A program made the position numbers and the translations under genes. A stretch of DNA of 59,743 nucleotides, counting the filler, from Dirinaria sp. TL-2023a (lineage: Eukaryota): the NCBI GenBank assembly GCA_051941275.1. It is 3 parts of 3 records of this genome, joined end to end, with 100 filler letters (N's around TTAATTAATTAA, not from the genome) between each part and the next. Parts side by side here need not be neighbours in the genome. Positions count along the whole stretch, not along the records: positions 39,917 to 59,743 come from JAVEBF010000311.1; 2 more parts are not named here. The stretch is one strand, 5' to 3'. The notes beneath the pieces were generated by a model, which had not been told where the DNA came from, searched no databases, and saw only the letters and a list, made by a program, of their open reading frames with translations. Shown here one piece after another: positions 19,848 through 54,843 of this stretch; the first letter of the stretch is position 1; the number at the start of each line of letters is the position of its first letter.

Positions 19848-19865
19848 TATGTGAATGGTGGGCCC

Positions 19866-19965
19866 NNNNNNNNNNNNNNNNNNNNNNNNNNNNNNNNNNN
19901 NNNNNNNNNTTAATTAATTAANNNNNNNNNNNNNNNNNNNNNNNNNNNNNNNNNNNNNNNNNNNN
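19866..19965. other. Artificial contig linker (N44-TTAATTAATTAA-N44)
   Basis: Palindromic 12-mer with stop codons in all six frames, inside an N run totalling exactly 100 bp. Confidence 0.97.
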
Positions 19966-23200: not shown

Positions 23201-25909
23201 GGATGCCTATGATCGAGCCAATATAGGCGTTCAGCCATACCAGCAACGCGAGGATGTGCTTTCGTAGACGGAGCATCTTCAAGGGTGGGATAAAGGGTTG
23301 CTCTCATGATATCCGCGATTACCGGATGCGCTCGTCGTTGGATATCTAAACGGCTTGTAGGAAATGGTCGGATGCTCGAGAGTGAAGGATACATCATTCG
23401 CTCGAACAGTGACTGGTCAAGTCGGTATTTCTCGCTGTTCTCGGTGGCCATTTCTTGCTCATTGACCTGTGCCCTCAGCTGCAAAGGGTCACCGATGAAA
23501 ATGGCATGCTTGATAGATGGAAAAAGCGTGCAAAGGCTGTGTGCTTCAATAACTTCTCCAGCCTCTTCGCATATGACAGTCTTCATATCAAGCTTGCTGA
23601 GCAAGGGCCAATATTTGGCACAGGCTGTTGTAGTCAATCCAATGACGTCCTGCTGACCGAAGCGGTGAACGTCGTCGTCAGTGCGAGTTTGGTGTCTCTG
23701 TCGAAGCGCTTGCTGGTGCCGTCGGTGGAGCTCCACAGCTTGATCCACAAGCGTTGCTATTCCAATCTCGTCCTGCCACTTCGCGACCAAAGCCAAGCGT
23801 TCCGATTGCGGCATCGTCCAAATGCTGGGCGATGGATCAGATGCGACGTGCTCGGTGTTCTGTACGATTTCTTGGACGATTTTGTCTTTTAGTTGATCGA
23901 CATCTCCGGAATCCATACCCGCTCCCTTCTTCCCTTGCATCTTGGCTTTGTACATCCCTTGTATGATAGCTTCGTTTTTCCCCAGAATGTTATGAAAGGA
24001 TACAAGAAGGCTTTCAATATCCTTAAGGTCGCCACCGTTGCACCAATACTCGAATGCAAAGCCACCTCCCTGCTGGGACACTTTGGCCTGGTCTATGGTT
24101 CGTCCGGGACTCAGACACTCAACCTCGGCCAAAGAACGACATATCTCGGGGTAATTCAGCTCCAGGTGCGACCGGACTGCTGTCCAATGGATGGTCGTGC
24201 TGTTAAAGGAGTTACATATCCCTGCTCCCTGAACGCATAGCCCTGTGACCTGTAAGCGAATCGAATTGCGGAATTAAGCACTGCCAGACCTTCTAAGCGG
24301 TCCTTCCACAAGGCCCAAGCAGAACTATTTCTCGACAGCCCTTTGAGCCGGTGACTGAGTGCTCGAGGCTGATATCGTTCCGTCCATTGCTCCTTGCTTC
24401 CACCTCCAAGTCGGACCAACTTGTCAATGCCGTCTTTAAGCAGGTCTGCTAAGAAGCTGTCCAGTGCATGGTTGGTCATGCAAACGACCATTATAGGTCT
24501 CGAATCTTCTATGTCCCTGGAGGCAAGCAGCACTTTTGCAAGGGAGACTCCAAGAAAGGTCTTTCCAGTGCCTGGTGGTCCTTGTGTGAACGCCAATCCT
24601 CGCGAGAGGTTCTCACAGAGCGCAGTAGCTTGCCCTTGGTCTAGAGTAGTTTGAAGGCGCAACGAATCGTGCATGGATTGCCGTACCTGTTGATCTCGGA
24701 AGTACTCTTGAGGATTCAGTTTCAATGGTTCTTGCGTTTCGGGTTGACGACCTTTGCGAAGGACGCTAAGATCATATCCAGTACTATCTCGAGAGAAGTA
24801 TTGAGGCGGCTGATTGAAATTCGTTGCGTTAGGGTTTGCAGATGTTATGGACGCCGCGAATGCCATTTGCTCATCCGAGTGCGACATTATCTTCAAACGT
24901 TCGAGACACCATGAGAACCCAGCAAGTAGGACCCTTGGGAAGTCTATTAGGACGAAGTGCTCCGAGAGGATGCTCTGCTTATTAAATAACAGCCTCCTCG
25001 CAGCAGGCAAGTCATGAGGGTCGGCCAAAGCAACTAAGCAAGATGCTTCCAGATGTTAGAATCACTCAAGCTGATAAGGCAAGCCAACTTACCACGAAGG
25101 TCATTGTCAGTCTTAGACCTCATTGCCAATGTACTCTCACGTCTGACGACCTCGACAAATGTCACTGAAATAAGAGATGTTTCAGGTTCGAGCCCGATCA
25201 ATGCAGCTAGCATGCCTTCTTCGAGGCATTGCGCAGTGCGCATGGCTTTTCCACGTAACAATCCAGGACAAGCGAAGCTAAGGCGGAAAGCCAAACCATG
25301 TTTGGGATGGAACTCTATCTCCTCAAAGCCAACATCGCGGAACATGGAGTACGAAATGTCTCGAGGTGTTCGCATACGATCATCATAGTCCAGAGCTTTG
25401 AGATTCTGGGCCATGGTTGTAAGATTTTGGCATGCATGATAACAGATATCGATGATCGATTCGGTATTGTCGTATCGTAGATGACGGAAATGTAAATCTA
25501 GTATTTTTGCAATATCGTCTGTCGTGTGACTGGCACCGTTCTTGATAGGCATATAAGGTCGCCGCAAAGAGAGTATTTCGTCTGCTGTTGGTAGAACTTT
25601 GATTTTGAAGATGTTTTCTTGGTCATTATTGTGGCGTGGGCCATGATGAGAAAGATGGCCTGGGCCGTCGATGTCGAGTTGTGTTTCATCATCCGGAGCA
25701 CGCCTCGGCTCTACAGACAGGATATTTGGTTCCGTTTGAAGCTCAGTATTCTCGTAAACATGCTCGACCGGCTCGCAGATCATATGAGACTGAGAACACC
25801 GCTCTCCTTTCCGACAAAATCCATGGAGAAAGTCGTTGCATAAGGAAGCCGAAGCTGTTTGTGGTAAAGACGAGGTATATAAGGATGGCGCAGCTTTTAT
25901 TCCTGCCAT
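20263..25909 (-). CDS. ZNFX1-like (NFX1-type zinc finger) SF1/UPF1-like RNA helicase, 3 coding exons: 25909-25093, 25045-24290, 24242-20263
   Basis: N-terminal CCCH finger (CNDFLHGFCRKGERCSQSH); Walker A QGPPGTGKT; MTNHALD; ICEEAGE; IGDPLQL; SLFER; LTPYNGQ; TIDNFQGEE; NVACSRA; tandem NF-X1 fingers; C-terminal CxxGHxY...CPECG. Introns 25092-25046 and 24289-24243 restore the frame. Probable 5'-UTR intron at 26037-25968. Confidence 0.9.
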
Positions 25910-33920: not shown

Positions 33921-36799
33921 ATGCCTATTTCCCAAGCAAAAGTCAAGAGCGTCGTCTCGGGCGATACACTCATACTTACGAGCGTCAACAATCCCAGCCA
34001 AGAAAGGACGTTGAGTCTCGCCTTTGTGAGCGCTCCTCGAATGCGGCGCGAGGGTGACGAGGTGAGCAGGCCTTATTTTATTCTTGCGCAAATCACATCC
34101 CAAGGAAGGCCAGTGTGAGCGTTTTGGGTTTTGGTGCCTGGCTGGGGGAATTGATTGCCCAAAAAAACACCTGCGCTTTTCCGTGCCCTGTTCAGACGTA
34201 TGAGATGAATAAGAAACTTTAGAAAAGCTGACATCTTTTGATCATAGCCTTATGCTTTCCAATCGAGAGATTTCGTCCGCCGTATGACCGTTGGAAAAGT
34301 GGTACAATTCAAAGTCCTCTATAGCATCCCCACCGGCGTAAAGCGAGATTATGGGACTGTCATATTACAGGGCGGGCAGTCATTGCCCGAAGCGGCCGTC
34401 TCGGAAGGATGGGCCAAATTAAGAGACGACGCTGGCCGTAAAGACGAGTCTGAGGAATCGAAAATGCTGATCGAGAAACTTGAACTTCAAGAAGCGAAGG
34501 CCAAACATGATTCCAAGGGCCTCTGGGCAACAGGAGACGGCAGAATCGAAAATAAGTATGAAATAACAGATCCTAAAAGCTTTGCAGAAAAGTGGCAGAG
34601 TAGACCCTTAGATGCCATAGTTGAGCGGGTGCTTACTGGAGACCGCATGATCATCCGTTTGTTCTTGTCCGAGAAAGAGCATGTACAGACACTAGTCTTA
34701 GTTGCAGGAATACGGGCACCTGCGACTAAGAGAGTGAATCCTTCAGATGGTAAAGAGCAGCCTGCAGAGCCGTTTGGCACTGAATCGTTCCATTTTGTCG
34801 AATCGCGGCTCTTACAGAGGAATGTGGTGGTGGATGTGCTCGGTGTGAGTCCCCAGAACATACTTGTGTGCGAGGTTAAGCATCCCAATGGGAGCATTGC
34901 AGAATTCGTGCTCAAAGCTGGATTGGCACGATGCACCGACTTCCACTCAACCATGCTTGGCAATCGAATGGCCACACTTCGACAGGCCGAAAAGCAAGCG
35001 AAGGATAGCCGCCAAGGGGTCTTTCAAGGGCTTGCCAGCACAAAATCATCAGCAGCTTCAGACCAAGATGCCACTGTCACTCGAATCCAAACAGCAGATA
35101 CTATATATTTGCGTATGAAGACTGGTGAAGAGAAAAAAGCAAGTCTAAGCAGCATACGACAACCTAAGCCTACCGATCCCAAACAGTCTCCATTTCAAGC
35201 CGATGCGAAAGAGTTTCTACGAAAGAAGTTGATTGGCAAACACGTCAAAGTCACTTCAGACGGCAAGAAAGCATCATCTGAGGGATACGAAGAGCGAGAA
35301 GTCGTCACTGTGTTTGTCAACAACAAGAACGTTGCTCTCTTGCTAGTCGAGGCTGGCTATGCTTCTGTGATACGGCACCGCAGAGATGATGGTAGGATTT
35401 ACCCTTAAGATTTCTTCAGAGAGCTAATCTGGGTATAGACGACCGAAGCCCGTACTATGACGAGCTCTTAGCGGAAGAGGAAGCGGCCCAGAAAGAGCAG
35501 AAAGGAATGTGGGCGACCAAACCTCCTGCGGCAAAGACGTATCAGGATTATTCTGAAAATCTGCAAAAAGCCAAAATCCAATCCTCCGTCCTTCAGCGCC
35601 AGAAAAAAGTCCCCGCTATGGTCGACTTCGTCAAGTCTGGCTCTCGCTTCACATTACTCATCCCACGCGAGAATGCTAAGCTGACCTTTGTACTATCTGG
35701 AATCCGCGCTCCTCGCTCAGCCCGAAACGCGAACGAAAAGTCTGAGCCGTTCGGTCAAGAAGCTCATGATTTTGCCAACCGCCGCTGCATGCAGAGAGAT
35801 GTTGAGATTGACGTTGAGAGCACCGACAAAGTTGGCGGCTTTATTGGGGCGCTCTACATTAATCGTGAAAACTTTGCCAAACTCCTACTCGAGGAAGGTT
35901 ATGCCAGTGTTCATGCGTACTCAGCAGAACAGTCTGGCAACGCAAATGAGCTCTTCGCCGCAGAGAAAAAGGCTAAGGATGCTCGTAAAGGCATATGGCA
36001 CGACTATGATCCGAACGCCGAGAACGAAGATATTGCTAGTGACGAGCCAACTACTAATGGCACAGCGACAAATGGCGATGCCCCTCAGAAGAAGGATTAC
36101 CGCGACGCGTTAATCAGTCACGTCGAGCCCACAGGCCGCCTGAAGCTTCAGATGATTGGCCCCGGCACAGCCAATCTGACGACGCTCATGTCTTCATTTA
36201 AGAAATTCCACATCTCAGCTACCAATTCTGGCCCTCTCCCAGGCCCGCCCAAGGCAGGTGATATCGTTGCAGCTAAATTTTCTGCTGATGGAGAATGGTA
36301 TCGCGCAAGAGTACGGCGCAACGACCGCGATGCGAAGCGCGCAGACGTCATATTCATCGATTACGGGAACAGCGAGTCTGTGCCCTGGTCGTCCCTCCGT
36401 CCCCTGAACCAGTCCCAGTTCTCAACGCAAACCCTCAAACCCCAGGCAGTGGACGCTGCGTTATCATTTTTACAATTCCCTACAAGCTCGGAATATCTTG
36501 AAGACGCCGTCGACTTTATAGGCCGAGCAATGGGAGATAAGGAGCTTGTTGCATCCGTGGACTCTACCGACAAGGACGGCACGCTATGGGTCACACTCTT
36601 CGACCCGAAGAGCGAGGCCGGAGAGGCTGAAAGCCTGAACAAGGAGATTGTAGCCGAAGGATGCGCGATGGTGGCTCGAAAATTGAGAAGCTGGGAGCTG
36701 AACAGGCCGAAAGTGCTGGAGAGTATACGAGTAAAGGAGGCCGAAGCGAAAGCAGAGAGACGGGGTATGTGGGAATATGGGGACCTCACGGAGGACTGA
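33921..36799 (+). CDS. SND1: Tudor staphylococcal nuclease (Snd1), 3 exons: 33921-34061, 34248-35391, 35439-36799
   Basis: Four SNase repeats (VKSVVSGDT, VERVLTGDR, VTRIQTADT, VDFVKSGSR), Tudor domain AKFSADGEWYRA...FIDYGNSE, terminal GMWEYGD. Confidence 0.96.
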
Positions 36800-39916: not shown

Positions 39917-40390
39917 GGTGGTTAGTCGGCAGGGGACACGGCCGTGGTAAGAGTGGAGGCAATTTTACGAGGCCGTGCACAGGATGGATTTTTTGCTGTG
40001 AGTTGGGAGGTTTTCGAAGAATATGATTTGAAGAGGTATTTGGACATAAAATCCTGCCAAACTTTCCAAAGTGTTGGCTCTTGCCCTGTGCCTTTGTTTT
40101 TCTTTTCGCTTTCTTTTTCTTTTTTTTTTTTTTGTGTAATTTTGAAGATACTTTATACGTCCCATGTGCAGCAGAACCACAGTTGGGATACGATAGCGAA
40201 AACGAAGGAGAAAATTAAACGTCATGGGATACTATGTAGCAAACCCCATGTCTTAGTCCCCGGTTTTGTAAGATGAGACAAAAACCAGCGCTTCATCAAT
40301 CTCTGACTAATTGATCAGAGACAGTGTGCGAACGAGTGCAGCCTTACACTTTAGATTTACTCTTTTCTTGAGGACACACTCAAGAGGTTC

Positions 40391-40393
<3 letters not shown>

Positions 40394-40423
<30 letters not shown>
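40394..40423. repeat. Poly(T) tract
   Basis: 30 consecutive T. Confidence 0.95.
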
Positions 40424-41542
40424 CGTGCTTCGAATTGGACTCTAAGGAAACGCCATCTTCAGACAATGGGGGAAAAAAAAAACCAGTGAAAAAAAGAGGC
40501 TCCAATAAATGAATGAGCCAGAGTCTTCAGCATTAGGCTTTCGGAGAACATAAGAGGATTCAGGGTGTTGAGATACAACAGTAATCCTCAGGCCAAATTT
40601 CAAAGAAGGATAAAGAGGAACGTTACTGCACAAGAACCTTAGCTACCTGAAGGATACAGTTTTCGATCCAAAAGATAGGACTTCGTCCCCTTTTTCAACA
40701 CTCTGCAGCTGTCTAAGTTGCCATTGAACCAAAAGCATTCGTGCAGTCAACAATTACCAACCTCCAGTGTGCATGGCCAGCTTCACATTCTGTTAGTCTC
40801 GGAAATTTATTTGCAGCGAGACGAATTCTTTTTGTCATGAATGCTTGAACACTATCCAGTCTTTCAGCATCAACTATTCATCACCGCTGCATGCTGTGAA
40901 ACTCCCTGCTTTGTTAATATTGTCCGATGCTATCAGGGTCATGAATGCAAGATTCCCATGTATGTGATTTTTTTCTTAGTGCCACAATGACCATATATAA
41001 GACCTGCTTCTCTCTCGATTCTAATTTTTTCACGGTAAGGTATACTATCTATTGTCTTGTGAATCTCGGTGGCGCTAGTCTCTTTGTTAAATCCGGAAGT
41101 CTCTTCATCTATGTTAGTACTATTGTTCGAACAGTACGAAAGTTCTTCATTGTGGGTTGCTGAGCTCTTCTGTGAAGCTTATCCATATCAATTCCGCTGC
41201 TACCCGGCTCTTGCTGAGGGATATATATACATATCTCTTCTCCCATCTTTCCTCTCTTATTTTTACATTACTTTGAGAGTTCCCAGACTCAGAAGAATCC
41301 GAATCTTAGAACCAAAGCTGTTGCTCTTTTGCTACTTCGACATACTTGACAATCGCTCCCCGGCCATCAAGTCACAAATCTAGTTTACTTCTCTTCCTAC
41401 AAAGTTTCCATTCGATATCTGCGATAACGTGTCCCATACTTGAAACGCAGTGTTATTTGATATCATTCCAGGTTGAGATCGTATCGTCACAGCTTTCTCA
41501 AGATATTGCGAACGTTTTCGTCCTCCCTGCAAAGAATACATA

Positions 41543-42430
41543 ATGTCAGACATGTGCACATCCAATGCAGCTCCCGACACAAAACCCAGCGAAGTAGAGC
41601 AGCAGACCCTTTTGAAGGCTTCCGACTTTGCAGTACAGGAATATAAGGCGGGAGCGGCACCGAAGCCGGAAGGAAATCTCGTGGATCATGGCATCAACCT
41701 TGTGGCCAATGATTGGGTTTCCAATGTCCTTCTGCATGAATCTAAGGGAAACATAGCGAACAATCTCCTCGGTATCCCCAGAGAGATCAGGGACCTTATC
41801 TACGGATGTTTCTTTCCACGCGCCAAAACCATTCACCTGACGGATGGGAGCCCAATTGCAAGCGCCGGAAGCATCGAACCAGCTACCTACACCTGGTCAA
41901 ATGATGCGACCAAGCTCATGCTTAGCTGCCGGAGAATCCACGATGAGGTCACTAGTCTCATCTACAGGACGAACACCTTCATTCTCACACCGTGGGCCAT
42001 GAATTATAGATACACCAGGATGGCGCCTCATTCGAACACTGACTTCTGGCTTTCGGCGATGCGACCAATGATGAAGAGCATGGTCAAAAAACTCCACATC
42101 TACCTTGCCAAGCCATATCTCCCGCAGAGTATCAGCAAAATCGCGGACGGACTCGCCTACTTCCCGGAAGTCGAGATTTTAATTATACCACTGAGCACTA
42201 TCCTCGAACCAAAGCGCTCAAACCACCGCTCAAGCTTCGAGGCCCTTTGCAGAGCCATCGAAAAATCTCGGGCTGATAGTCGGCCAATCATATGGAACGA
42301 TGGTGGCGATCTTGAAGTTGCCACTATGCTAGCCAACATGCCGAATGGCTTGATGCTCCGCCGGCCAACGGCGCTTGAGAAAAATAGTCAGAAAGCGACT
42401 GATAGGAGAGTTTATTGGGATGGCTGGTGA
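41543..42430 (+). CDS. Fungal F-box-like (DUF7730/2EXR-like) hypothetical protein
   Basis: 295 aa with LLGIPREIRDLIY...LMLSCRRIHDEVTSLIYRTNTF, the pattern of this expanded Pezizomycotina family. Confidence 0.75.
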   Translation: MSDMCTSNAAPDTKPSEVEQQTLLKASDFAVQEYKAGAAPKPEGNLVDHGINLVANDWVSNVLLHESKGNIANNLLGIPREIRDLIYGCFFPRAKTIHLTDGSPIASAGSIEPATYTWSNDATKLMLSCRRIHDEVTSLIYRTNTFILTPWAMNYRYTRMAPHSNTDFWLSAMRPMMKSMVKKLHIYLAKPYLPQSISKIADGLAYFPEVEILIIPLSTILEPKRSNHRSSFEALCRAIEKSRADSRPIIWNDGGDLEVATMLANMPNGLMLRRPTALEKNSQKATDRRVYWDGW

Positions 42431-43493: not shown

Positions 43494-46400
43494 TTAATTC
43501 CTTCTCGATTCTAAGCTCTCCTTTTGTGCCAGTAGGAGGTCAAGCTCCTCATGAACTTGTACCCACTCCGGGGGATGGTAAGCATCTATCTTTCGCCCGA
43601 TGACTACTAGAGCGTCCAAATGTCTGATGGCATCATCGAAGGCTTCATTGCGCTGAAGTGCGTCAGCAAGGCCTGCTTGATGGTACCATATCATCGCCCG
43701 CTCTCCTAGAGCCGCACATGCCTGTATGAGCTTGACTCTCGGCTTGCTCAGTGACGGCATTTCTTCTTCCGAGGTCTGCTCGAGTAATGCAACGCACTGT
43801 TGGGCGGAATGGGCGGCATCCAGATGCCGCTTTTCTTTGACAGCAAATCGCATCATTATCTGATGTTTTGCAAGCAGTAGGTCATTTTCAAAACGGGATG
43901 CGAGCAAGTGATTTCTTTCATCTCGGGCACCTTGGGCTTTCTCTTTCTCGATATCAGCAATGGTGCTGAGCGCTTCTGCGAAATGGTCGCTTTCTCCCAG
44001 CTGCTTTGCTTGGCTCAGATACCCATCCCATTGCAGACGCTGCAAGGCTCTTTTTCTTTCTTCGAGAAACTCGCCATGCCGGTTTCCGAGCTTCTTGTCC
44101 AATTCGGTGCACTCTCGGATCACACTAGATGCAGTGTTGAAATCACCCTTCGAAACAGCGTCTTTGGCAAGTCTGCTGAGATTCAAGAACTCGTCTTCCT
44201 CTTTAAGCCACCGCTTCGTAGCTGTCATTGGGCTGGCGTTATGCCAAGTGACCATATCACCACTTTGGAGCTCCTCCATAATCTCAACATGACCAAGAGC
44301 TTTTTGGTATTCGCCTTTTTCGATGGCCTCTACCGTATCCGTGCAGGAACGTAACCACGCAGTATCAATACTAACCTGGTCATCTGTCGATATGTCACGC
44401 GCGCCGGAAGACTCATACCTCTGGCTCCTTCTGTCTCTCATCTCCCAACGCGGCTGAGGAGGGTCCAATCGGGCCAGGATCATGGTTGCGCTTTGGCAGT
44501 TCCGTTGCATCTTCATCATCTCTCGAAAGGCCTCTTGTAGTTCTGCAATGGACGAACTTGGAGTTACACCTAAAAGCGTATAAGCCTCACGCCAGTTTTC
44601 TTCCATTGATTGGAAGTCGGAAGACTTTGCGGTGCTTTCAATAGAGTCCGCAAGCTCCTGAACTCTAGTAGCCACGCCAACCAATTGCGTCTGCTGCTCT
44701 AGCGAGGAAAATTTGGCTTCTAAATCTTTGTCACCTCTGATAAGTTCGTTCAGTCTAGCTAAATGTCTTGCAGCATCTTGAATCTCTCCGTTGTTCAATA
44801 ACCGCGCCGATAATTTATAGTGATTTGCAGCGGCAGACACGATATCAGTCTCGTCATAGGCTAAGGCTAAATCTGCTGTTTGGTCTAGCTGAGCGCTGGT
44901 ACTTTTTGGTTTCACAGCGCTCGCTGATGTCTTCGAGGACTTTGATGGGTCGTTCGTTGAGGTGGCGGTCGGCTTGGATCGCTTCGGAAGATCTGCAAGC
45001 AATGTCGAAAACTGCTGGCCGAGCTCTTGAAGCTTTTCATTCACATCAGTCTCACCACTGGTTTTTTGCTGCACGATCTGCCACTCTAGCTCTCTGACTT
45101 CGAGCAATAGGCTTATCTCGGCAGTGTCCAATTGAAGTTGTCTAGTGTCATTCGCATGTATTGTAGCTGAGTCTCCGTCCTCATTTTCGAGACCCAGTGA
45201 ATCGGTAGATCGCTCTTTGCCAGAGCTCACAGACGATGCTCGTCCTTTGTGCGACGCCTCGATGGCTCGCTGCAGAGCTCGGAGATAAAAGTCGGTAGCT
45301 TGTTCCTTGACTATCTCTGAATCGTCCGCGTTATTGTCCACCAAATAAAGTGCAGCCTTGTGACAAAGGTCCCCCAGTGCGAGCAATCTCGCTTGGAGAA
45401 AGTGGTCAAAGATTGTCTGATCGAGCCCGCCTATGAAGGTTGATACGGTCACTAACCTAGTGATGACCTTCTCTGGGAATGTTCGGATTTTTGAGGTGTA
45501 CATGTCCAGGAAGTGAGACATGCACATGACCCAGAAAAATACGACTTCGGGATCATCCATAATCTCATCATACTGATCCTCCAAGCTGCATAGCAATCGC
45601 TCGACGGCTTCAATTGACTTTTTCCTGTAGTGAACGCTTTCCTCCGCCTTAAGAACGTATTGGAAAAATATGGCAAAGCCATCGCGAGGCCACTTCGAAG
45701 GCGCAATTCGCAATTTATCACTAGTGCAGAGACCGCAGACGAAAAGAAAATTGTAGAGTTCGGTGTGCAGCCACGGAGATACCGAGTCTGTAGACGTAAC
45801 GTAGTGACTAGCATGTTTCAAATGAGCAGAGATCAGACGAGTGCCCATGTTAGTCAAAAACTCATGTAGTACAGCCCACTGGAAGTACTCATCGGGCTCT
45901 TGATCCATTAACATGCAGCGAAAGGTTTGAAGGACCGCGAACGCTCGCTGCCCAATATCCTCTTTATTCCAGACTGGCTCTTGGTCACAAAGCCTGTCTC
46001 GCAGAAACATGGTAAGGAGAGGGTGAATGTAGGTAATCCGATTTTGATCTTCGCTCTCGAGCCATAAGCGATTTCCGACAATCTGAATGACCTTGTGAAA
46101 GCCTTCAATTTGCTCACAAACACCCCATTCTACCATCATTTGGAGCCACTCCCCAGCGATAGGGCCAGAGTGCCAGTAAAGGCCCAAAAAGCACAAAGCG
46201 AGCTGCAGGGGAGGATGCATGCTTTGCCAAACTTTATACATCTCGAAGAGGAAGCTATTACCTTTCGACTGCCAAAAATGTCCGTTTCCAAACGGGGCAC
46301 TCTCCAAATCCTCGAAAGTCAAGTAGTGTGTTGAGTATCCTTTGCTGTCGGATGCCATATAGACCAAAAAGGGCAAGGATATGGAATTCATTAACAGGTT

Positions 46401-48473
46401 GTTAAACCCTATCTTTAGATCGCCGGCCAAAGCAGTCACCACGTGGCGGATGGCAAGAGGGTTTAAGTCACAGAGTAACAAGATTTGCTCCAATGCGTCG
46501 GCATCCTTCTGATACCATGTGGGAACAGCTACATCGCACTGAACAAAGACTTTAGTAGCGAGGTCGAACGCGTCTGCTAGCGATAGATTAGGAACCGAGA
46601 ACGTCGCCACCTGGTCTGCGTTTTCAAGCCGATTTCGCCAAAGAGAGTCGAGATCATGCCTAGTTACCAATATCACCCGAGTCTGTCTGTGGCCGCTGGC
46701 AGCTGGGCTGACAGCTTCATTGACAAAACCGCACAGCTCCGAAACCGCCGTCGGCGGCAAGTATGGCGGCCAACCCTGTAATGGGAGATTATGGTGTCCG
46801 TCGCGGATGCCGTCTAAAATTAAGACAGTCGACTTGCTACGTATTTCAGACAAGATTGCGGCGTCTTTCTCTTTCGGCACACCACCACGCAACGCGAGCT
46901 GGATTGTACTAGCCACATCTTGGGTAGGTTGTAGTGCGAGAATACTGGATGCGATGCGCTCAACCAGGTCTGCTCGGCTCCTGATATTGTGTTCTCTTAC
47001 ATTTATATATATAACAAAATTGAAAGACGCAGTTTGCTTCCAAAGGGAGCATAACTCATCCACAAGAGCAGATTTGCCGACGCCAGGTGAGCCCAGGATC
47101 ATGACAGGGCTATGCTCCACGACGAAACGGTCAATCTGTAAAATATCACCGCCACGACCGAGCACCTCCTCAGCTTGTTTCTCGAAGTTGTCCAAAGCTG
47201 GCATAGAAGAATTCGCGCCTAACCGAGGTTTAACGTCGCCGGGGAAAATCACATCTTGCCCACTTGTATACACAACTGGTATGATCCAATCCATCAATGG
47301 CTCACTGCTTCGGAATCGAGTCATTCGCATTGGATCGGCACGAAGTGTTGCCCTTGCACTCGCTGCGGCAACCGAAAATGGCTTAGCCTCAATTAAAAAT
47401 GTATGATAGAATGCTTTGATGAAGGAATTCGCCGCCGATTCCAAGAGCCTGTGAGACATTGCAAGAACATTGTTAATCCCAGCGGAGACGAAGACACTTG
47501 CCAGATTCGCATCTGTCTCAAGACCTGACCTAGCAGAGTCGCACGCGTTGAGCACGGCGATTGGACATCCATAACTCGCTAGTACTTCCGCGACAGCTTT
47601 GGATGAAACGGGCGTGAGCTTCTTAGAGTCTGTTGTAGCAGAGGCGAAGTACAAGAAGGACTCTTTGACCCCTTTGCGCTTGGCCACTCTTCCATGAAGG
47701 TCAAAATGTACGATATTGTAGAACCCACGACCGTGCTGGATCGAGGCATTCATCAGATGCTCTTTCAGTGCTGGAAAAGACCCTGGCCGGACAATATGTA
47801 AGTTGAGATGACGGGCATTGCTGGTCTTCTCCATTTGCGATTTGGCATTCAGCAGATGCTGATACGCAAGATCTGTCTGAGCGTCTTCCGCATCTCCAGA
47901 GCAGTCCCTAGCTAACACAAGCAGAACATTGACATCTGACTGTGCAGCGTGACCAATGCTTTGAGGAGGTTGATTGAGAGATACTTTAATTGATCCATCG
48001 ACTGGACCTGTGAGATATCTCCTGACCAACGCATTGACATTTGCGAGTAGCCAAAACTCTGGATCCTCGAGGAGTTCCCAGTATATGTTCTGTATTTGCT
48101 GTCCCTGTGGCTCACCGGTCTGCCGGATATTGATCTCAATATTGAACGTACTTTCAACATCTTTTGTGTTTCGCAAGAGTCTGACCAGTAGGGGAAGCCC
48201 TACATGAAGATACAGTTGAGTGCCAATGTCTTTCAGGTACGAGGCCATGAAATTCGCTTTTTGGAGGTCAAATGAGTCTTTGGGAATGAAAGACTCGAGA
48301 TACCATCTTACTTCTTCGACGTAATCATCTCTGAAAGGCTGTGGAAGTCGGATTTCCTCCTCAAAAGTAGTGCCGTCGAGCGACAGCGAAAGAAGCAAAT
48401 TACTGCTTTTGAAGACATCTTCATTGCTTGTGTGGTCGATACGAGAGCAAACCTCCACGGTGTGCCACATCAT
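43494..48473 (-). CDS. NLR-like protein: CHAT caspase-like protease + STAND (NB-ARC-like) NTPase + TPR-like helical repeats
   Basis: 1659-aa uninterrupted ORF. CHAT motifs VRWYLE, YWELLE, catalytic HFDLHG (His at 47694-47696) and VLNACDSA (Cys at 47541-47543), VLAMS, DWIIPVVY. Walker A GSPGVGKS, Walker B VLILDG, ILVTR, NPLAI, YIHPLL. Helical Ala/Leu-rich C-terminus. Confidence 0.9.
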   Translation of the reverse strand: MMWHTVEVCSRIDHTSNEDVFKSSNLLLSLSLDGTTFEEEIRLPQPFRDDYVEEVRWYLESFIPKDSFDLQKANFMASYLKDIGTQLYLHVGLPLLVRLLRNTKDVESTFNIEINIRQTGEPQGQQIQNIYWELLEDPEFWLLANVNALVRRYLTGPVDGSIKVSLNQPPQSIGHAAQSDVNVLLVLARDCSGDAEDAQTDLAYQHLLNAKSQMEKTSNARHLNLHIVRPGSFPALKEHLMNASIQHGRGFYNIVHFDLHGRVAKRKGVKESFLYFASATTDSKKLTPVSSKAVAEVLASYGCPIAVLNACDSARSGLETDANLASVFVSAGINNVLAMSHRLLESAANSFIKAFYHTFLIEAKPFSVAAASARATLRADPMRMTRFRSSEPLMDWIIPVVYTSGQDVIFPGDVKPRLGANSSMPALDNFEKQAEEVLGRGGDILQIDRFVVEHSPVMILGSPGVGKSALVDELCSLWKQTASFNFVIYINVREHNIRSRADLVERIASSILALQPTQDVASTIQLALRGGVPKEKDAAILSEIRSKSTVLILDGIRDGHHNLPLQGWPPYLPPTAVSELCGFVNEAVSPAASGHRQTRVILVTRHDLDSLWRNRLENADQVATFSVPNLSLADAFDLATKVFVQCDVAVPTWYQKDADALEQILLLCDLNPLAIRHVVTALAGDLKIGFNNLLMNSISLPFLVYMASDSKGYSTHYLTFEDLESAPFGNGHFWQSKGNSFLFEMYKVWQSMHPPLQLALCFLGLYWHSGPIAGEWLQMMVEWGVCEQIEGFHKVIQIVGNRLWLESEDQNRITYIHPLLTMFLRDRLCDQEPVWNKEDIGQRAFAVLQTFRCMLMDQEPDEYFQWAVLHEFLTNMGTRLISAHLKHASHYVTSTDSVSPWLHTELYNFLFVCGLCTSDKLRIAPSKWPRDGFAIFFQYVLKAEESVHYRKKSIEAVERLLCSLEDQYDEIMDDPEVVFFWVMCMSHFLDMYTSKIRTFPEKVITRLVTVSTFIGGLDQTIFDHFLQARLLALGDLCHKAALYLVDNNADDSEIVKEQATDFYLRALQRAIEASHKGRASSVSSGKERSTDSLGLENEDGDSATIHANDTRQLQLDTAEISLLLEVRELEWQIVQQKTSGETDVNEKLQELGQQFSTLLADLPKRSKPTATSTNDPSKSSKTSASAVKPKSTSAQLDQTADLALAYDETDIVSAAANHYKLSARLLNNGEIQDAARHLARLNELIRGDKDLEAKFSSLEQQTQLVGVATRVQELADSIESTAKSSDFQSMEENWREAYTLLGVTPSSSIAELQEAFREMMKMQRNCQSATMILARLDPPQPRWEMRDRRSQRYESSGARDISTDDQVSIDTAWLRSCTDTVEAIEKGEYQKALGHVEIMEELQSGDMVTWHNASPMTATKRWLKEEDEFLNLSRLAKDAVSKGDFNTASSVIRECTELDKKLGNRHGEFLEERKRALQRLQWDGYLSQAKQLGESDHFAEALSTIADIEKEKAQGARDERNHLLASRFENDLLLAKHQIMMRFAVKEKRHLDAAHSAQQCVALLEQTSEEEMPSLSKPRVKLIQACAALGERAMIWYHQAGLADALQRNEAFDDAIRHLDALVVIGRKIDAYHPPEWVQVHEELDLLLAQKESLESRRN

Positions 48474-49160
48474 CAGCCAGAAGATTCTGAGATCAAAGCG
48501 AATCTATCCAAATTCAGAGATCATGACAGGTCTATCATATTCCACGCTTATTCGCCCGTAGATCCAAGATCATGTAGGACGTATGTGGTTTAGAATTACC
48601 ATTCCTCGACTCACAACTATTGAGTATATTTTCATGACTGTACCACGGCTGATAAATGACCCAGAGAGTAGACGTGGCCATCCAAGCATCTGTAAGACAA
48701 CTGATTGGTGGATGGTCAGGCGTTTCTTTAATCCGAATTGAGGCATTCGAGCCCCTGTCAGCAAATCTTAACTAAGCGTGACTATCCATTTTCGACATAG
48801 TGTCATTTCCCCCCCGTACGCAGTACAAGTTAAATGATGGTGGCGAGCTGATTGATTGAAACTTGAAGGATGAAGCCCAAATGTCCCGATCGTTTTGCGC
48901 CGCATAGACATGTTGAACATAGTTGTGTAGGAGTCTTGATTTTGTACGAGTCTTAATTTCCCGAATGTTCGCGCGGAATAGGGTTGTTTTGGCCAGTCAG
49001 TGACGCGAAGTTAATGGAGTTGAGGACACTGAACCGATCTAGGAAGTATCTATGGAAGATTGGCGGCCGCGGTTCTGCCAGCATCTGACACGAATAGGAT
49101 AGCAAAGGACTCTTGTACCTCCAGTCCTGGGGCCTAAGCCGTAGTAGACAAAGACCCGCG

Positions 49161-50075
49161 ATGGCAGCGTCACGACGGCGGTATTTTCTTCTGGACGAAT
49201 TAATTACTGCTGACAGAGCAGCCGACATGATGGGTCGCATTGTGCAAGACATCTTCCTGCCACTGTACCGCTACGCGCCAGCTACTCCGGTGGATGGCTC
49301 ACTGCCGGCCCATAGCCCACGGGACATTCTACCCAGTATTTTGCCCAAGCCGATTGTGGCAGCGTCGCGCAAGGCCGTCCTGGAGAGTCTGCCAACCAAG
49401 GAGCTGCATATTGCTCTGACTGATCTTTTTGGACTCGATCTCGAGCGTGGGCAAACTGATTCCGTCGAAATAGAAGGTAAAGCCGTCAAGCAGTACTCAC
49501 TCAGCCAATCGAGAGAGGTTTTCGAACACCTCATGCATAATTCAACATACGCAGCAGAGGCCCTAAAATTGCTTCAAGACAGTCCCCGTCGTCGCGCTTT
49601 CTTTGTCACAGGCTTCATGACGACGTCTTCGACCACGTTGAGACGAACTAGTGGTCGAAAGATGCAGTACGGATTCAACATAGCCATTCCTATTTCCTCA
49701 GCTTTCGGGGGCCCTGCTTTGCTCGATCCAAAGCTTGCACCATCTGTATCATCAGAAACATCCGTCAGCCAGGAGACAATTCTGCCAGATGAGTGCATAT
49801 TTGCCATGTCGTACGATATTATAGCTCTGACGCGGAGATTTGACATCCAAGCGCCAAAGTTCGTGCATCATTCAATCAAGCATCAAGGGCTCAAAAGGGC
49901 AAAGCCGCAGCATTTAGCATTGGGCAGAGACGACGGGAGTGATGAGGAGATCGAGGAGGACGAAGAAGAGTCCGAGAAGGAACCAGCCTCTACCGCCAAC
50001 CACAACCCAACAGACGGCAATCCTGACGTTGCTATAGAATATCTAGAGGAGCTTGAGAACCTTTCGCAATTGTGA
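49161..50075 (+). CDS. Fungal gasdermin-like protein (HET-Q1/RCD-1 family), 304 aa
   Basis: Family-like pattern YFLL...GRIV...P...YAP, Ser/Thr-rich alternating beta segments, VKQYSL...F, AFFVTGFMT, IFAMSY, then an acidic C-terminal tail. Divergent from a CHAT protease gene. Called by pattern recognition, not HMM. Confidence 0.8.
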   Translation: MAASRRRYFLLDELITADRAADMMGRIVQDIFLPLYRYAPATPVDGSLPAHSPRDILPSILPKPIVAASRKAVLESLPTKELHIALTDLFGLDLERGQTDSVEIEGKAVKQYSLSQSREVFEHLMHNSTYAAEALKLLQDSPRRRAFFVTGFMTTSSTTLRRTSGRKMQYGFNIAIPISSAFGGPALLDPKLAPSVSSETSVSQETILPDECIFAMSYDIIALTRRFDIQAPKFVHHSIKHQGLKRAKPQHLALGRDDGSDEEIEEDEEESEKEPASTANHNPTDGNPDVAIEYLEELENLSQL

Positions 50076-52402: not shown

Positions 52403-54843
52403 ATGGCTCAGCAGCCGAGGACATACAACTCTTATAGCCAAGCTCACATGCCGAATGGTGCCACTACTGGCCCAGCTTCCAATACAGCAGCTAACACCGG
52501 CACAAATTTCTTACCGAACAATGGTCGCGTGGTCCAGGCCAACGGCGTCCGAATCTTGTGTGTGGCTGATGTCAGAGGTCAGTCCTGCATATTGTCCATT
52601 CATATATTCGCCCTTGGCACTGACTCATTTGGTTCTGAACAGGGCATCTGAAGTCTTTGAATGACCTTGCAAAGCAAGCTCGAGCCGACTACATCATTCA
52701 CACGGGAGATTTCGGCTTTTACGATGATAGCTCTCTCGACCGTATTGCCGATAAGTAAGTCGAGCGTTGCTATCACCAATCTCTATGACTCCCACCCATA
52801 CTGATTGAGATGAGCAGAACCCTCAAACATGTTGCACAATACTCGCCCCTTCTTTCCGAACAGACCAAACGTGCCATACATACGAGCGGCCCACAACAAG
52901 GTAACATTCGGCAGCGCTTTCCAGCAAATGAGATTGCGCTTTCAGAGCTGCCAATGTTCATCGACAAGAAGTACACTCTCGATGTACCTGTCTACACAGT
53001 TTGGGGCGCATGCGAGGATGTGCGCGTCTTGGAGAAGTTTAGGTCTGGCGAGTATAAGATAGAAAAACTACACATAATCGATGAAGCTAGCTCGAGGCTA
53101 CTGGAGGTCGGAGGAGTCAAGCTGCGTCTGCTTGGATTGGGAGGCGCTGTGGTCATGCACAAGCTTTTCGATAATGGAGAAGGCCGCACTACGATCGCAG
53201 GAGGTCAAGGTACGATGTGGACAACTCTTTTACAAATGGGCGAACTTGTCGATACGGCGAACCGCGTCTACGATCCTACCGAAACCCGAGTATTCGTCAC
53301 CCACGCGTCGCCAGCTCGAGAGGGGTTGTTGAATCAGCTTTCCGTAACACTCAAGGCAGACTTCTCCATCTCCGCTGGCTTACACTTCCGATACGGCAGC
53401 TCCTACAACGAGTTCAGCGTCAATCCAACTCTAGATCACTATCGTGGAAAGCTTGCTGCTTCGAAAGCTTCTTTCAACGATGTCTGGGAGACGGTAAAGG
53501 GCGAGGTGGAGCCAGTAGTCTCTCAGAATGAAGCACAGCAAACATTGCTCACTAACGCTCTGGACATTGTCTCGAAGATGCCAGCCGTCGCCAACGGTGG
53601 TAATCCATTCGGAGGCCCTGTTCCTGGACAAGGCGCAGGAGGAGGTGCCGTTGACGAGAGTGCTTTCAAAAACATGTGGAACTTTAACCTTGCAGATGCA
53701 GCATTCGGTTATTTGGTGCTTGAAATCGATGCGGGGCGAATTGGTACAGAGATGCGTGCTCAAGGTTTCAATTTCGCACATCGCGGCGTTGGAGGCGGCA
53801 AGCCAGGAACAACGCAATCTGTTCAGTCCCCTGCCCAGCCGCCAATGATCAGTGCAGCTATGCCACCTACTGGACAATCGCGACCCCCAGTTGGCCCCTC
53901 ACAGCCTAGCATAAACCAGCAACCGCATCAGCAAACCGCCCCGCAAATCAACCAGCAGACGAGCCAGCAAACGAATCAGCAAGCACGCAACCAGAATGCC
54001 TCCGTCCAAGCGAAAGCAGCAGCTCAGCCACCGTCGCAGGCTCAACAAGATAAGGCGCCGAATGCTCCCCGGGTTGTACCTTCGCCTGCTGCTTCCGCCG
54101 CGTCAGGCCAGGTAAAGCCAGCCACTCCACAACCTCAAGCCACTGGATCAACAGCTCCGACTCCATCAGCGGCTTTGGCAGCAAAACCCTCCACTCCAAG
54201 CCAAACGACAAATGGAACTGCTTCGAGCGACAAGCAGACCCAACAACCTCCGACCAAACCAGCTTCCCCTGCAGTTGAAAACAAGCCTAGCACAGGCTTA
54301 TTTGTTCACAACATGGATTCCGAGGATGCCGTCCGAGATATCTTTGTTGACGAAGACAAAGCGAAAATTGTCAAGATAGAGAAGTGGGGGAAAGGAAACC
54401 ACGTCGTTCACTTCAACACCCATGAAGAAGCTAAGGCTGCTTTAGATCGCCAGCCAGCCGATCACAAGAAACCTTCGCAGGCTGTCGCAGGTCAGCCTCG
54501 TAAGCCGAACATCAAATGGTTCGATACTCGTGGTCCAAGGAATAACTTTGGCCGCGACAACCGCGAGTCCCAAGGGGCTGGAACATGGCAAGGCAGCAAT
54601 CGTGGCGGCACCAGCAGCGGGCCTCGTCCCGGCTACCAGAGCGGCGCCAGTGATAGCGAAAGCGGCCGAGGCCGCGGTGGCTTTAACCGTGGAGATCGCG
54701 GAGACCGTGGCGGGCGAGGTAGCCGCGGCCGTGGGCGAGGACGTGGAGGGTTCAACAAGAGTGGCGGAGACGAAGGGTCTGCAGCACCAGCCTCAAGCAC
54801 GCCATCAAGCACACCAGCTGCAGCATCGACTGAGAAATCTTGA
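52403..54843 (+). CDS. Calcineurin-like metallophosphoesterase-fold protein (DUF2433-type) with Q/P-rich linker, RRM-like domain and RGG tail, 3 exons: 52403-52577, 52643-52754, 52818-54843
   Basis: RILCVADVRG, IIHTGDFGFYD, VYTVWGACED, THASP, SAGLH; RNP-like GLFVHNM and GNHVVHF; RGG/RG repeats; two in-frame GT-AG introns. Confidence 0.85.

Follow-up and report, generated by a model that had tools for sequence, protein, structure and literature searches.

Two adjacent genes of Dirinaria sp. TL-2023a raise the question of whether a lichen-forming member of the Lecanoromycetes encodes a cell-death system in which a receptor carries the very protease that activates its pore-forming neighbour. Within the window (i.e., the whole stretch of DNA analysed, 59,743 nucleotides with filler), the first-pass annotation had proposed a CHAT-protease NLR facing a gasdermin-like gene, and both open reading frames (ORFs), their divergent orientation and their spacing were found just as it had described. 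The larger frame, of NLR type, encodes 1659 aa on the minus strand (43494..48473, standard code, stop codon at 43494-43496), and the smaller one, seemingly intron-free, encodes 304 aa on the plus strand (49161..50075) and corresponds to a fungal gasdermin gene of the het-Q1-like type. The two ORFs are head-to-head, with start codons 687 bp apart, and the divergent intergenic region (48474..49160, 687 bp) is presumed to hold both promoters. A chance ORF is ruled out for the larger gene, because its 1659 codons run uninterrupted at about 49% GC. In the smaller frame, 17 of the 21 listed nucleotide differences from the contigs of a close relative fall at third codon positions (binomial p 1e-5), an excess that reveals purifying selection on this frame.

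A Predicted Gasdermin Fold for the Small Protein

The 304-aa protein matches no Pfam family at E ≤ 1, and none of 114 relatives matches a Pfam gasdermin family at E ≤ 0.01, Pfam possibly holding no model trained on fungal gasdermins. Judging from these 114 relatives, the whole clade, which amounts to 462 representative clusters, is invisible to Pfam, so that routine annotation labels such proteins hypothetical. Homologs are nonetheless full-length and colinear, and several core residues (V28, P34, P40, L124, G151, P177, A215 and Y218) are near-invariant across the family. When a profile of the 114 relatives was searched against PDB sequences, the best of the nine matches listed were RCD-1-1 (E 1.9e-4), MBP-RCD-1-1 (7.7e-3) and RCD-1-2 (9.7e-3), the RCD-1 alignments being colinear and the match marginal in strength.

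Structure prediction points in the same direction. The AlphaFold2 model (pLDDT 77.9, pTM 0.75; core mostly 83–98) retrieves gasdermins at all of the ranks 1–12 in Foldseek (E 4e-7 to 3e-3) and at all of the ranks 1–21 in VIA-align, where the top non-gasdermin has a Z of 5.6, compared with 10.6 for the RCD-1 pore, 10.1 for the RCD-1-2 crystal, 9.9 for RCD-1-1 and 9.3 for a bacterial gasdermin. The alignment to the RCD-1 pore includes 207 of 234 residues over model residues 5–255. Identity to solved gasdermins is low (9–14%), as are the Foldseek TM-scores to gasdermins (0.26–0.54), and rmsd values are high; the likeness of the model to the extended pore form explains this in part. A language-model search, taken as a lead only, places Bact_GSDM clusters among the neighbours (9 of 30, at 0.95). 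Altogether, profile and predicted fold confirm a gasdermin fold for the protein first annotated as gasdermin-like, in spite of the blindness of Pfam, and this identification leans on the predicted structure, as the sequence link is marginal (E 1.9e-4). The predicted pore-forming core corresponds to aa 1-244 (49161..49892, plus strand), with long beta-hairpins modelled at aa 92-113, 145-172 and 195-227.

The Large Protein Is an NLR with Its Own Caspase-Like Protease

The product of the 1659-aa ORF is a het-Q2-like NLR in which an N-terminal region, a CHAT protease and a NACHT NTPase precede a long C-terminus, helical and presumably TPR-like. Thirteen homologs were found, of which three share 73–76% identity and the identical start MWHTVE..., and the close orthologs are colinear, with 68–80% identity. 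The N-terminal region (aa 1-120; 48114..48473, minus strand), whose family is not named, holds an RWYLE motif (nt 48294-48308) in which W57 and Y58 are invariant in an alignment of nine homologs. The same motif is present in the head-to-head neighbour of a metagenomic gasdermin gene (locus L002, see below), and was spotted by eye in partner proteins of Clavé Dataset S2.

The CHAT caspase-like domain (PF12770) extends over aa 123-383 (47325..48107, minus strand), scoring E 5.3e-13 and 49.5 bits against a Pfam cutoff of 24, and is matched in all nine homologs examined. It contains the motifs HFDLHG (aa 256-261, nt 47691-47708, minus strand) and LNAC (aa 308-311, nt 47541-47552, minus strand), in which H256, D258, H260, G261, N309 and C311 are invariant among the nine homologs. 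We take His260 and Cys311 to be the catalytic dyad, following the H-G / x-C pattern of the caspase family. Downstream lies the P-loop part of a NACHT-type NOD (PF05729, aa 456-556; 46806..47108, minus strand), recognised at E 2.1e-7 and 31.4 bits (cutoff 26.7), with NACHT matched in 9/9 homologs and NB-ARC in 6/9. Its Walker A motif GSPGVGKS (aa 461-468, nt 47070-47093, minus strand) keeps the GxxGxGK residues G461, G464, G466 and K467 invariant in the nine homologs, all of which also retain the acidic residue of the Walker B motif (VLILDG, aa 550-555, nt 46809-46826, minus strand). The best PDB sequence matches of this P-loop region are NLRP5, NLRP14 and NLRP1. The four motifs that the first-pass annotation had read in the protein are thus all present, with intact catalytic and P-loop residues, and the Pfam scan that it had suggested returned both domains above their cutoffs.

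Its third element, the helical repeats, is weakly supported. The C-terminal 960 aa, presumably the sensor (aa 700-1659; 43497..46376, minus strand), would comprise a winged-helix/helical extension of the NOD, a Ser/Thr-rich linker of low complexity, and helical repeats resembling TPRs. TPR_14 matches weakly (E 0.18), TPR_2/TPR_12 matches occur in two of nine homologs, designed TPR proteins (CTPR) of the PDB match with E 0.12-0.9, and the language-model neighbours of the region are TPR families (0.85-0.90), again as a lead only. This C-terminal part is also the least conserved one, identity among close orthologs dropping to 56–64% over aa 951-1200 vs. 78% in the CHAT domain.

The Gene Pair Recurs in Three Ascomycete Classes

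A pair was recognised when an NLR gene lies within 10 kb of the gasdermin gene and the arrangement recurs; here, the two genes are 687 bp apart and relatives have both. In Heterodermia speciosa, the orthologs bear adjacent locus tags (HETSPECPRED_002216 and HETSPECPRED_002217), and in the assemblies of six relatives, the small and the large proteins are encoded on equally sized contigs, which is the basis for calling the pair there. Two metagenome loci were available. In one of them (L002), a gasdermin 38% identical to that of the window stands head-to-head with an ORF at a spacing of about 570-660 bp, and this ORF matches two N-termini, that of the window protein at E 4e-8 and that of P0165, a member of the family, at E 2e-18; in the other (L001), no head-to-head partner was seen within 1.1 kb upstream.

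Further cases come from the catalogue of Clavé et al. 2022, in which two family members, KAB5578600.1 from Coniochaeta (P0008) and KAF2259607.1 from Didymosphaeria enalia (P0016), are rows of Dataset S1, i.e., het-Q1 homologs. In that catalogue both have a CHAT gene as partner, described in Dataset S2 as CHAT + P-loop_NTPase. The relatives CAF9940244, KAH7234484 (= XP_046125155) and KAI9770676 are absent from Dataset S1, which dates from 2022 and could not include the window protein itself. The co-occurrence of the two genes outside the window is thereby established, and the pairing holds across three ascomycete classes (Lecanoromycetes, Sordariomycetes and Dothideomycetes).

Parts of both genes are covered, at 90–99% identity, by contigs of a single lichen RNA library (one sample, two runs). 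These are a weak hint of transcription; they belong to a relative and not to this strain, and may derive from contaminating DNA.

A Candidate Cleavage Site Precedes an Acidic Tail

Just behind the core, the small protein carries a conserved motif (aa 242-258; 49884..49934, plus strand) that reads Q-G-L-KRAKPQHLAL-G-R-DD, the family consensus being G-x-P-K-R-A-K-x-x-H-L-A-[FML]-G-x-D-D. Among 114 sequences, the consensus residue is found 69 times at G242, 61 at R246, 68 at L252, 59 at A253, 81 at G255 and 61 at D257, and position 254 is occupied by F (41), M (31) or L (26). The motif is followed by a 50-aa C-terminal tail (aa 255-304; 49923..50072, plus strand) with 19 D/E and 2 K/R, the acidic run of which is kept across the family (114 sequences). 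In the AlphaFold2 model, this tail has a low confidence (39-58) and is not docked on the core.

By analogy with HET-Q1, cut between F238 and A239, and with the Runella gasdermin, cut after L247, the post-core motif is a candidate protease site, with a cut after residue 254. Likewise, the tail of about 50 aa is presumed to be an inhibitory fragment set free on cleavage, since HET-Q1 and bacterial gasdermins behave in this way. The combination of KRAKxxHLA[FML]G-DD and an acidic tail is a new point, and makes for a concrete cleavage-site prediction for CHAT-NACHT proteases.

Proposed Mechanism and Alternatives

We consider it probable that the two genes form a module for regulated cell death, belonging to the het-Q2-like/het-Q1-like class of fungi. 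The gasdermin would be kept inactive by its acidic C-terminal tail, which we assume to be autoinhibitory, and the 1659-aa protein would combine an NLR-type sensor and the executioner protease in one chain. Once the variable TPR-like C-terminus perceives a cue, the NACHT NTPase would drive nucleotide-dependent oligomerisation, thereby gathering the N-terminal CHAT domains (His260/Cys311) and activating them. These would then cut the adjoining gasdermin in or beside KRAKxxHLA[FML]G-x-DD, our best guess being after Leu254, and the released N-terminal domain would oligomerise into membrane pores and kill the cell. A literature search found no cleavage, toxicity or pore work on this pair or on any CHAT-NACHT member. 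With both genes on a single haplotype, an idiomorphic clash of HET-Q type is a less likely trigger than an immunity-like cue, i.e., non-self or danger.

RCD-1 is activated by the interaction of two allelic forms and is not known to require cleavage, and the gasdermin of the window might work in the same manner, the CHAT-NLR having other substrates and the adjacency of the genes reflecting only co-regulation or shared ancestry. RCD-1 is indeed the best match in both sequence and fold, and no cleavage is reported for the gasdermin family of the window protein. However, the conserved post-core motif and the acidic tail resemble those of cleaved gasdermins, whereas the aligned RCD-1 chains end near residue 257, and the pairing with CHAT-P-loop proteins is maintained in all three classes. 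Moreover, gasdermin clades remain tied to one protease type, according to Clavé et al. 2022, and we hold activation without proteolysis to be quite unlikely. It is even harder to believe, and indeed highly improbable, that the small protein has kept the fold and lost its pore-forming activity or taken another role, so that the locus would not be a cell-death system. Such a reading could invoke the silence of Pfam and the 9–14% identity to solved gasdermins, but it has to face the strong third-position bias (17/21 listed), the near-invariant core residues of a large conserved family and the conservation of the protease neighbour.

Instead of sensing heterospecific non-self as an immune receptor, the same module may serve another end and determine heterokaryon incompatibility (allorecognition) among lichen mycobionts of one species, compatibility being set by polymorphism in the C-terminus of the NLR or in the gasdermin. 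HET-Q1 and RCD-1, which are characterised fungal gasdermins, both have their role in allorecognition, and an Aspergillus fumigatus hetB allele is a CHAT protease gene. The C-terminal part of the NLR is its most variable one (56–64% identity over aa 951-1200 among close orthologs), and of the 10 differences listed within aa 1429-1479 only 3 occur at third positions, though this sample is tiny, with 57 further differences beyond those listed. Against this role, a haplotype of an idiomorphic HET-Q-type locus carries just one of the two genes, whereas both genes occur together here, in H. speciosa and, by their equally sized contigs, in six assemblies. In addition, the close orthologs are colinear at 68–80% identity, and nothing in them points to allele classes of deep divergence. 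Altogether, we regard an allorecognition role as unlikely.

Novelty and Significance

The novelty implied by the first-pass annotation has to be given up. Gasdermin genes beside CHAT-type NLR genes are a class already described, not a new category, with orthologous pairs in Clavé Datasets S1 and S2, and the idea of a shortened pathway whose receptor itself contains the caspase is in print (legend of Figure 6 in Clavé et al. 2022; Daskalov 2023; a 2025 review). Dataset S3 includes only two Lecanoromycetes genomes, both without gasdermin, and our literature search on gasdermin with Lecanoromycetes or lichen-forming fungi returned no report beyond a reference-list mention. The present module thus appears to be the first such record from Lecanoromycetes, a class living in obligate symbiosis, in which the control of cell death is barely studied. 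It is a well-supported example of pyroptosis-like death of the "caspase inside receptor" kind, with orthologs in several Heterodermia-like assemblies.

A bolder reading would join these points, namely a first gasdermin cell-death module from lichen-forming Lecanoromycetes that may be a thallus-transcribed surveillance switch of the mycobiont, with HLA[FML]-G-x-DD, cut before the G, as the substrate rule of CHAT-NACHT proteases; taken as a whole, it is speculative and rather unlikely. If true, the switch would kill hyphal compartments when the NLR, through its variable TPR-like end, perceives a lichenicolous fungus, a virus, a bacterium or a photobiont that misbehaves, and N-terminal CHAT-NACHT proteases would want a hydrophobic P1 and a small P1', unlike Asp-specific caspases.

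Comparison with Known Systems

Two characterised fungal gasdermin systems each share some features with the window pair. HET-Q1 resembles the small protein in having a short C-terminal inhibitory fragment and a genetically linked protease, which cuts it after a hydrophobic residue about 40 aa from its end (F238-A239). As the first-pass annotation had correctly stated, its partner HET-Q2 is an S8 subtilisin and not a CHAT protease, HET-Q1 and HET-Q2 being idiomorphs of one allorecognition locus. A HET-Q1/HET-Q2 system proper was rejected, the window partner bearing CHAT and its Pfam scan showing no Peptidase_S8 match, as was an idiomorphic HET-Q-type allorecognition locus, both genes being on one DNA molecule here and also in relatives. 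Neurospora crassa RCD-1-1/RCD-1-2 (PDB 8jyz, 8jyx, 8jyy) provide the closest solved structure (Z 9.9-10.6) and the sole significant PDB sequence match among those listed (E 1.9e-4). The aligned RCD-1 chains stop around residue 257, without a long acidic tail, and have no known protease partner, the PDB title speaking only of a pore.

The sole experimental precedent for the proposed cleavage of a gasdermin by a CHAT protease is found in Podospora anserina, where Q2L-6 (TPR-CHAT) processes the adjoining gasdermin Q1-6, with a barrage-like reaction (Clavé et al. 2022). There, as in the window, two clustered genes encode a gasdermin and a CHAT protease with repeats, the latter presumed for the window protein. 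In Q2L-6, however, the TPRs are N-terminal and the CHAT domain is C-terminal, with no NTPase reported, whereas the window protein has an N-terminal CHAT domain followed by a NACHT NOD. Closer in architecture are the pairs KAF2259607.1/KAF2259608.1 (Didymosphaeria enalia) and KAB5578600.1/KAB5578599.1 (Coniochaeta sp. 2T2.1), whose gasdermins belong to the family of the window protein by profile matches. Their partners (1348 aa in D. enalia) have the same make-up as the window NLR: a short N-terminus with (R/A)WYL comes first, then CHAT and a P-loop NTPase, and lastly an extended C-terminal part, with HxDxHG, LNxC, GxGVGKS and IHPLLT visible by eye. These catalogue rows, which come without experiments, differ in originating from Dothideomycetes and Sordariomycetes instead of a Heterodermia-like Lecanoromycete, and in a gasdermin identity of about 33–35% (33% for Coniochaeta P0008).

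Outside fungi, the bacterial gasdermin of Runella ends in a short inhibitory peptide, which is cut off behind the hydrophobic L247. The protease of this system unites a CHAT-like domain, repeats and an NTPase domain. A bacterial gasdermin also matches the predicted fold of the window gasdermin (Z 9.3). The Runella system differs in being a prokaryotic anti-phage operon with LRR instead of TPR-like repeats, and its sequences show no detectable similarity to the window proteins, for which PADLOC gave no gasdermin match and only a P-loop trace. Finally, the mammalian inflammasome (NLRC4 or NLRP, caspase-1 and GSDMD) follows the logic proposed here, from a NACHT sensor to a caspase-family protease, gasdermin cleavage and a pore. 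In mammals, however, CARD/PYD adaptors link a sensor to a protease that is a distinct protein, and the C-terminal domain of the gasdermin is much larger, whereas in the window a single polypeptide would unite sensor and protease.

Organization of the Locus and Its Surroundings

The first-pass annotation had described the genes for a large CHAT-NACHT protein (hereafter the NLR) and for a small gasdermin-like protein as arranged head to head, and both ORFs were recovered as described with the standard code, the large one at 43494..48473 on the minus strand (1659 aa) and the small one at 49161..50075 on the plus strand (304 aa), with 687 bp between the two divergent start codons. The rest of the window is occupied by ordinary fungal housekeeping genes (PIP5K, an XPG-type nuclease, an ESCO acetyltransferase, LepA/GUF1, an AAA_11/AAA_12 helicase, Tudor-SN, an inositol-phosphatase-type enzyme and NPC1) and its GC content is mostly flat, at about 0.48–0.51; therefore, the pair lies among core genes, in no obvious island. 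No second copy of either gene was found within the window using tblastn.

Several features of this neighborhood deserve a description of their own. GC content drops to 0.42–0.43 in two 2-kb bins (18001-20000 and 40001-42000), the second of which lies just past the 3' end of the NLR gene. About 1 kb past that same end, a 295-aa ORF (41543-42430, plus strand) matches DUF7730 barely over the cutoff (E 4.7e-7) and, weakly, 2EXR, both being fungal-specific families whose function is not known. On the other side of the pair, a 677-aa ORF (52810-54843, plus strand) carries DUF2433 (E 2.7e-48) and the fungal RNA-binding domain RRM_fung (E 6e-35), along with long low-complexity stretches rich in Gln/Pro/Ser and in RGG. 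Three housekeeping genes are each split into two adjacent ORFs: LepA/GUF1 (16239-18206, plus strand; GTP_EFTU, then EFG_C and LepA_C), the AAA_11/AAA_12 helicase (20263-24887, minus strand) and Tudor-SN (34284-36799, plus strand; SNase, then SNase and Tudor). This splitting is likely due to introns, which would confirm a eukaryotic gene structure. Each gene of the pair, in contrast, forms one ORF.

The Large Protein as a CHAT-NACHT NLR

All four motifs initially read in the large protein are present, i.e., HFDLHG (aa 256-261), LNAC (aa 308-311), GSPGVGKS (aa 461-468) and VLILDG (aa 550-555), and a Pfam scan bears out the corresponding domains, both over cutoff: CHAT at aa 123-383 (E 5.3e-13, 49.5 bits vs. 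a cutoff of 24) and NACHT at aa 456-556 (E 2.1e-7, 31.4 bits vs. 26.7), with weaker P-loop families on the same stretch as the latter. Searching with aa 1-700 recovered 13 homologs among 7999 scored candidates, three of which are 73–76% identical to the query, have similar lengths (1631–1658 aa) and begin with identical residues, while further homologs, one of them from Xylographa trunciseda, are found at 24–33% identity. In an alignment of nine homologs, H256, D258, H260, G261, N309, C311, G461, G464, G466 and K467 are invariant, and the acidic Walker B residue is retained in all nine; likewise, Pfam assigns CHAT and NACHT to each of these homologs, NB-ARC to six and TPR_2/TPR_12 to two. Among close orthologs, CHAT (78% identical) and NACHT (78–82%) are the best-kept parts, and aa 951-1200 the least conserved (56–64%). 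On the grounds of its domains, homologs and conservation, the large protein is therefore an NLR of the NACHT type with an N-terminal CHAT domain.

The C-terminal part, presumably the sensor, is probably TPR-like. Among PDB sequences, the NLR is best matched by NLRP5, NLRP14 and NLRP1 in their P-loop regions (E 6e-4 to 0.05) and faintly matched by designed TPR proteins near profile positions 1207-1293 (E 0.12–0.9). For aa 700-1659, the language model gives TPR clusters as neighbors (0.85–0.90), to be read as a lead only.

Ahead of the CHAT domain, aa 1-120 (48114-48473) feature an invariant W-Y within an RWYLE motif, which recurs in distant homologs, at the metagenome locus L002 (see below) and in rows of Dataset S2 of Clavé et al. 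(2022), where no domain is annotated at the N-terminus. This segment may correspond to an unrecognized N-terminal extension of this CHAT subfamily.

The Small Protein as a Gasdermin

Taken alone, the small protein matches no Pfam family at E ≤ 1, no PDB sequence (phmmer) and nothing in PADLOC. A word-indexed search returned eight relatives, the nearest being from Heterodermia speciosa and H. aff. obscurata (69–80% identity) and one from Coniochaeta (33%). When used as a profile against 1.84 billion representatives, these eight proteins identified 462 clusters at E ≤ 1e-3, a number that falls to 187 at ≤ 1e-10 and to 75 at ≤ 1e-30. Of the 157 proteins gathered in this way, the 114 with a length of 255–345 aa were retained and 43 shorter or longer ones left out. 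None of the 114 matches a gasdermin Pfam family, their sole Pfam matches (two GerD and one Cwf15) being taken as noise. The three best PDB sequence matches of the 114-sequence profile are nevertheless Neurospora gasdermins, namely RCD-1-1 (E 1.9e-4), MBP-RCD-1-1 (7.7e-3) and RCD-1-2 (9.7e-3), with a colinear alignment to RCD-1 (profile 123-265 to chain 124-256); the other six matches listed are RCD-1-2 again (E 1.3) and five unrelated proteins (E 0.06–4.3).

Structure prediction, together with Foldseek, agrees with the gasdermin-like nature first suggested for 49161-50075. An AlphaFold2 model based on only eight close homologs was discarded (pLDDT 34.9), and the one computed from the 114-sequence alignment (pLDDT 77.9, pTM 0.75) was used instead; it has a confident core, three long beta-hairpins and a low-confidence tail past about aa 245. 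Foldseek ranks 1–12 against the PDB are all gasdermins (RCD-1, GSDMD, bacterial gasdermin, Trichoplax GSDM, GSDMA3, GSDME and GSDMB) at E 4e-7 to 3e-3, with TM-scores that are low (0.23–0.54). Re-scoring of 993 chains with VIA-align placed the RCD-1 pore on top (Z 10.6, 207 residues aligned), then the RCD-1-2 crystal (10.1), RCD-1-1 (9.9) and the bacterial gasdermin (9.2–9.3). A language-model search, again a lead only, agreed with this, nine of its 30 neighbors being Bact_GSDM clusters at 0.95. Hence, we identify the small protein as a gasdermin, mainly on the basis of its predicted structure and of a marginal profile match.

A motif common to the 114 sequences, G-x-P-K-R-A-K-x-x-H-L-A-[FML]-G-x-D-D, comes directly past the final strand of the core and leads into an Asp/Glu run. 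Across these aligned sequences, the most frequent residues are G at position 242 (69 of 114), R at 246 (61), L at 252 (68), A at 253 (59), F, M or L at 254 (41, 31 and 26, respectively), G at 255 (81) and D at 257 (61). The version found in the window is KRAKPQHLALGRDD (aa 245-258), and the 50 residues from G255 on include 19 D/E and 2 K/R. HET-Q1 is reported to be cut between F238 and A239, about 40 residues before its end, and V246 and L247 to be involved in the site of the Runella bacterial gasdermin. By analogy with these two sites, we propose a candidate cleavage after residue 254, which would combine a hydrophobic P1 with a small P1'; the basic cluster KRAK is an alternative candidate site, and both are put forward by inference only.

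Recurrence of the Pair

The two genes also co-occur elsewhere, as expected from a functional pair in the first-pass annotation. In H. speciosa, their orthologs bear consecutive locus tags, HETSPECPRED_002216 (hypothetical protein) and HETSPECPRED_002217 (CHAT domain-containing protein), and in six assemblies the small and large proteins are located on contigs of equal size (56161, 43817, 50288, 33884, 12272 and 23402 bases); since these are close relatives, such pairings say little alone about function. A word-indexed homolog search with the profile of the small protein yielded 14 proteins, few of them with names. Clavé et al. (2022) list more distant pairs in their Dataset S1, where two relatives of the small protein, KAB5578600.1 (Coniochaeta) and KAF2259607.1 (Didymosphaeria enalia), are paired with KAB5578599.1 and KAF2259608.1, respectively, both of protease type CHAT. 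According to Dataset S2, these two partners have CHAT then P-loop_NTPase, with C-terminal parts of 351 and 1348 aa, and the same motifs can be seen by eye in their printed sequences. Three other relatives of the small protein (four accessions) are absent from Dataset S1. Considering the Heterodermia, Coniochaeta and Didymosphaeria pairs, the association has therefore been kept across Lecanoromycetes, Sordariomycetes and Dothideomycetes.

From 125 pattern matches, a metagenome scan with the eight-sequence alignment yielded two short loci. At L002, the gasdermin is 38% identical and an opposite-strand ORF, cut by the contig end, lies about 570–660 bp upstream; it matches the N-terminus of the family member P0165 (51% over 57 aa, E 2e-18), as well as that of the NLR in the window (E 4e-8), RWYLE motif included. 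At L001, neither the 1.1 kb upstream nor the 0.6 kb downstream shows a recognizable partner. Instead of a CHAT-type gene, the upstream stretch has a Lys/Glu-rich ORF (250-621, minus strand). The reading frame of the L001 gasdermin homolog (1041-2023) changes somewhere from about 1694 to 1790, suggestive of an intron or a frameshift.

Expression and Selection

Two runs of an RNA library, both made from a single lichen sample, contain 6–8% of the words of the region. Their contigs (10 and 8, respectively) cover parts of both genes at 90–99% identity, for which reason they are ascribed to a relative. This provides a weak hint that both genes are transcribed, as DNA can occur in such libraries. 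Region 47940-49074, including the intergenic region, and parts of the large gene have no RNA contig, a gap that proves nothing, and no splice joint was seen in the covered parts, to which this observation applies.

Among the differences listed (57 more exist in the region), 17 of the 21 within the gasdermin frame affect the third position of a codon (p 1e-5), a bias that clearly points to purifying selection on that frame. For the NLR, the corresponding numbers among the differences listed are 5 of 8 at aa 385-419 and, unlike in the gasdermin, 3 of 10 at aa 1429-1479 (44039-44187). The latter might be a sign of relaxed or diversifying evolution at the C-terminal sensor end, from a sample too small to carry weight.

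Proposed Mechanism and Comparison with Published Systems

Other explanations can be set aside. Chance ORFs are ruled out by length and codon-position bias. VIA-align ranks 1–21 are gasdermins only, with cholesterol-dependent cytolysins and MACPF proteins next (Z ≤ 5.6), which rules out a pore former of the MACPF/CDC type for the small protein. Nor can this be an idiomorph locus of the HET-Q type, since a single haplotype carries both genes. As a point of reference, the hetB locus of Aspergillus fumigatus is reported to be idiomorphic, one allele having a large CHAT protease and the other a short protein that is unannotated (PMC11138114).

The reading with the best support for the pair follows the model published for its class. 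The C-terminal repeats of the NLR would sense a cue, after which the NACHT domain would oligomerize; the CHAT domains would then turn active and remove the acidic tail of the gasdermin, and its freed N-terminal domain would make pores. Our analysis shows the parts list, active-site and P-loop residues that are intact, a gasdermin fold, the conserved adjacency and the selection on the frame; we infer every dynamic step of the module. Complex prediction with CHAT (aa 1-430) and the gasdermin gave no answer (score 0.00 in both runs) and is neutral on binding. The observation itself is confirmed, and computation, as far as it reaches, supports its interpretation.

In the literature, no account of gasdermins in Lecanoromycetes or lichen-forming fungi was found in full text, bar one mention in a reference list, and Dataset S3 counts no gasdermin in its only two Lecanoromycetes genomes, both from Lasallia. 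Nor did we find any CHAT-NACHT/gasdermin pair that had been tested experimentally, subscription-only papers being outside this coverage. Our additions are modest: a record from lichen-forming fungi, a gasdermin clade escaping Pfam and a concrete prediction of a cleavage motif.

Clavé et al. (2022) report that 80% of 1,884 fungal gasdermin genes are within 10 kb of a protease gene, that the CHAT type makes up 19% of those neighbors, some partners being NLRs, and that a truncated TPR-CHAT protein of Podospora processes the neighboring gasdermin; the legend of their Figure 6 has a CHAT-containing NLR-like protein as the hypothesized activator of a HET-Q1 protein. Their Dataset S2 holds 83 occurrences of P-loop_NTPase, the first 11 such rows comprising five CHAT + P-loop_NTPase and six S8 + P-loop + beta-propeller architectures. 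Daskalov (2023) mentions dozens of CHAT-carrying NLR or NLR-like proteins, and Wojciechowski et al. (2022) and a 2025 review repeat the CHAT-NLR/gasdermin account. The Runella protease, too, unites a CHAT-like domain, repeats and an NTPase (2026 paper). Consequently, the “one-protein inflammasome” of the first-pass annotation, in which a CHAT-NLR cleaves the neighboring gasdermin, is accurate for a known class but not new as an idea, because the model had already been published (Clavé et al. 2022; Daskalov 2023; and others).
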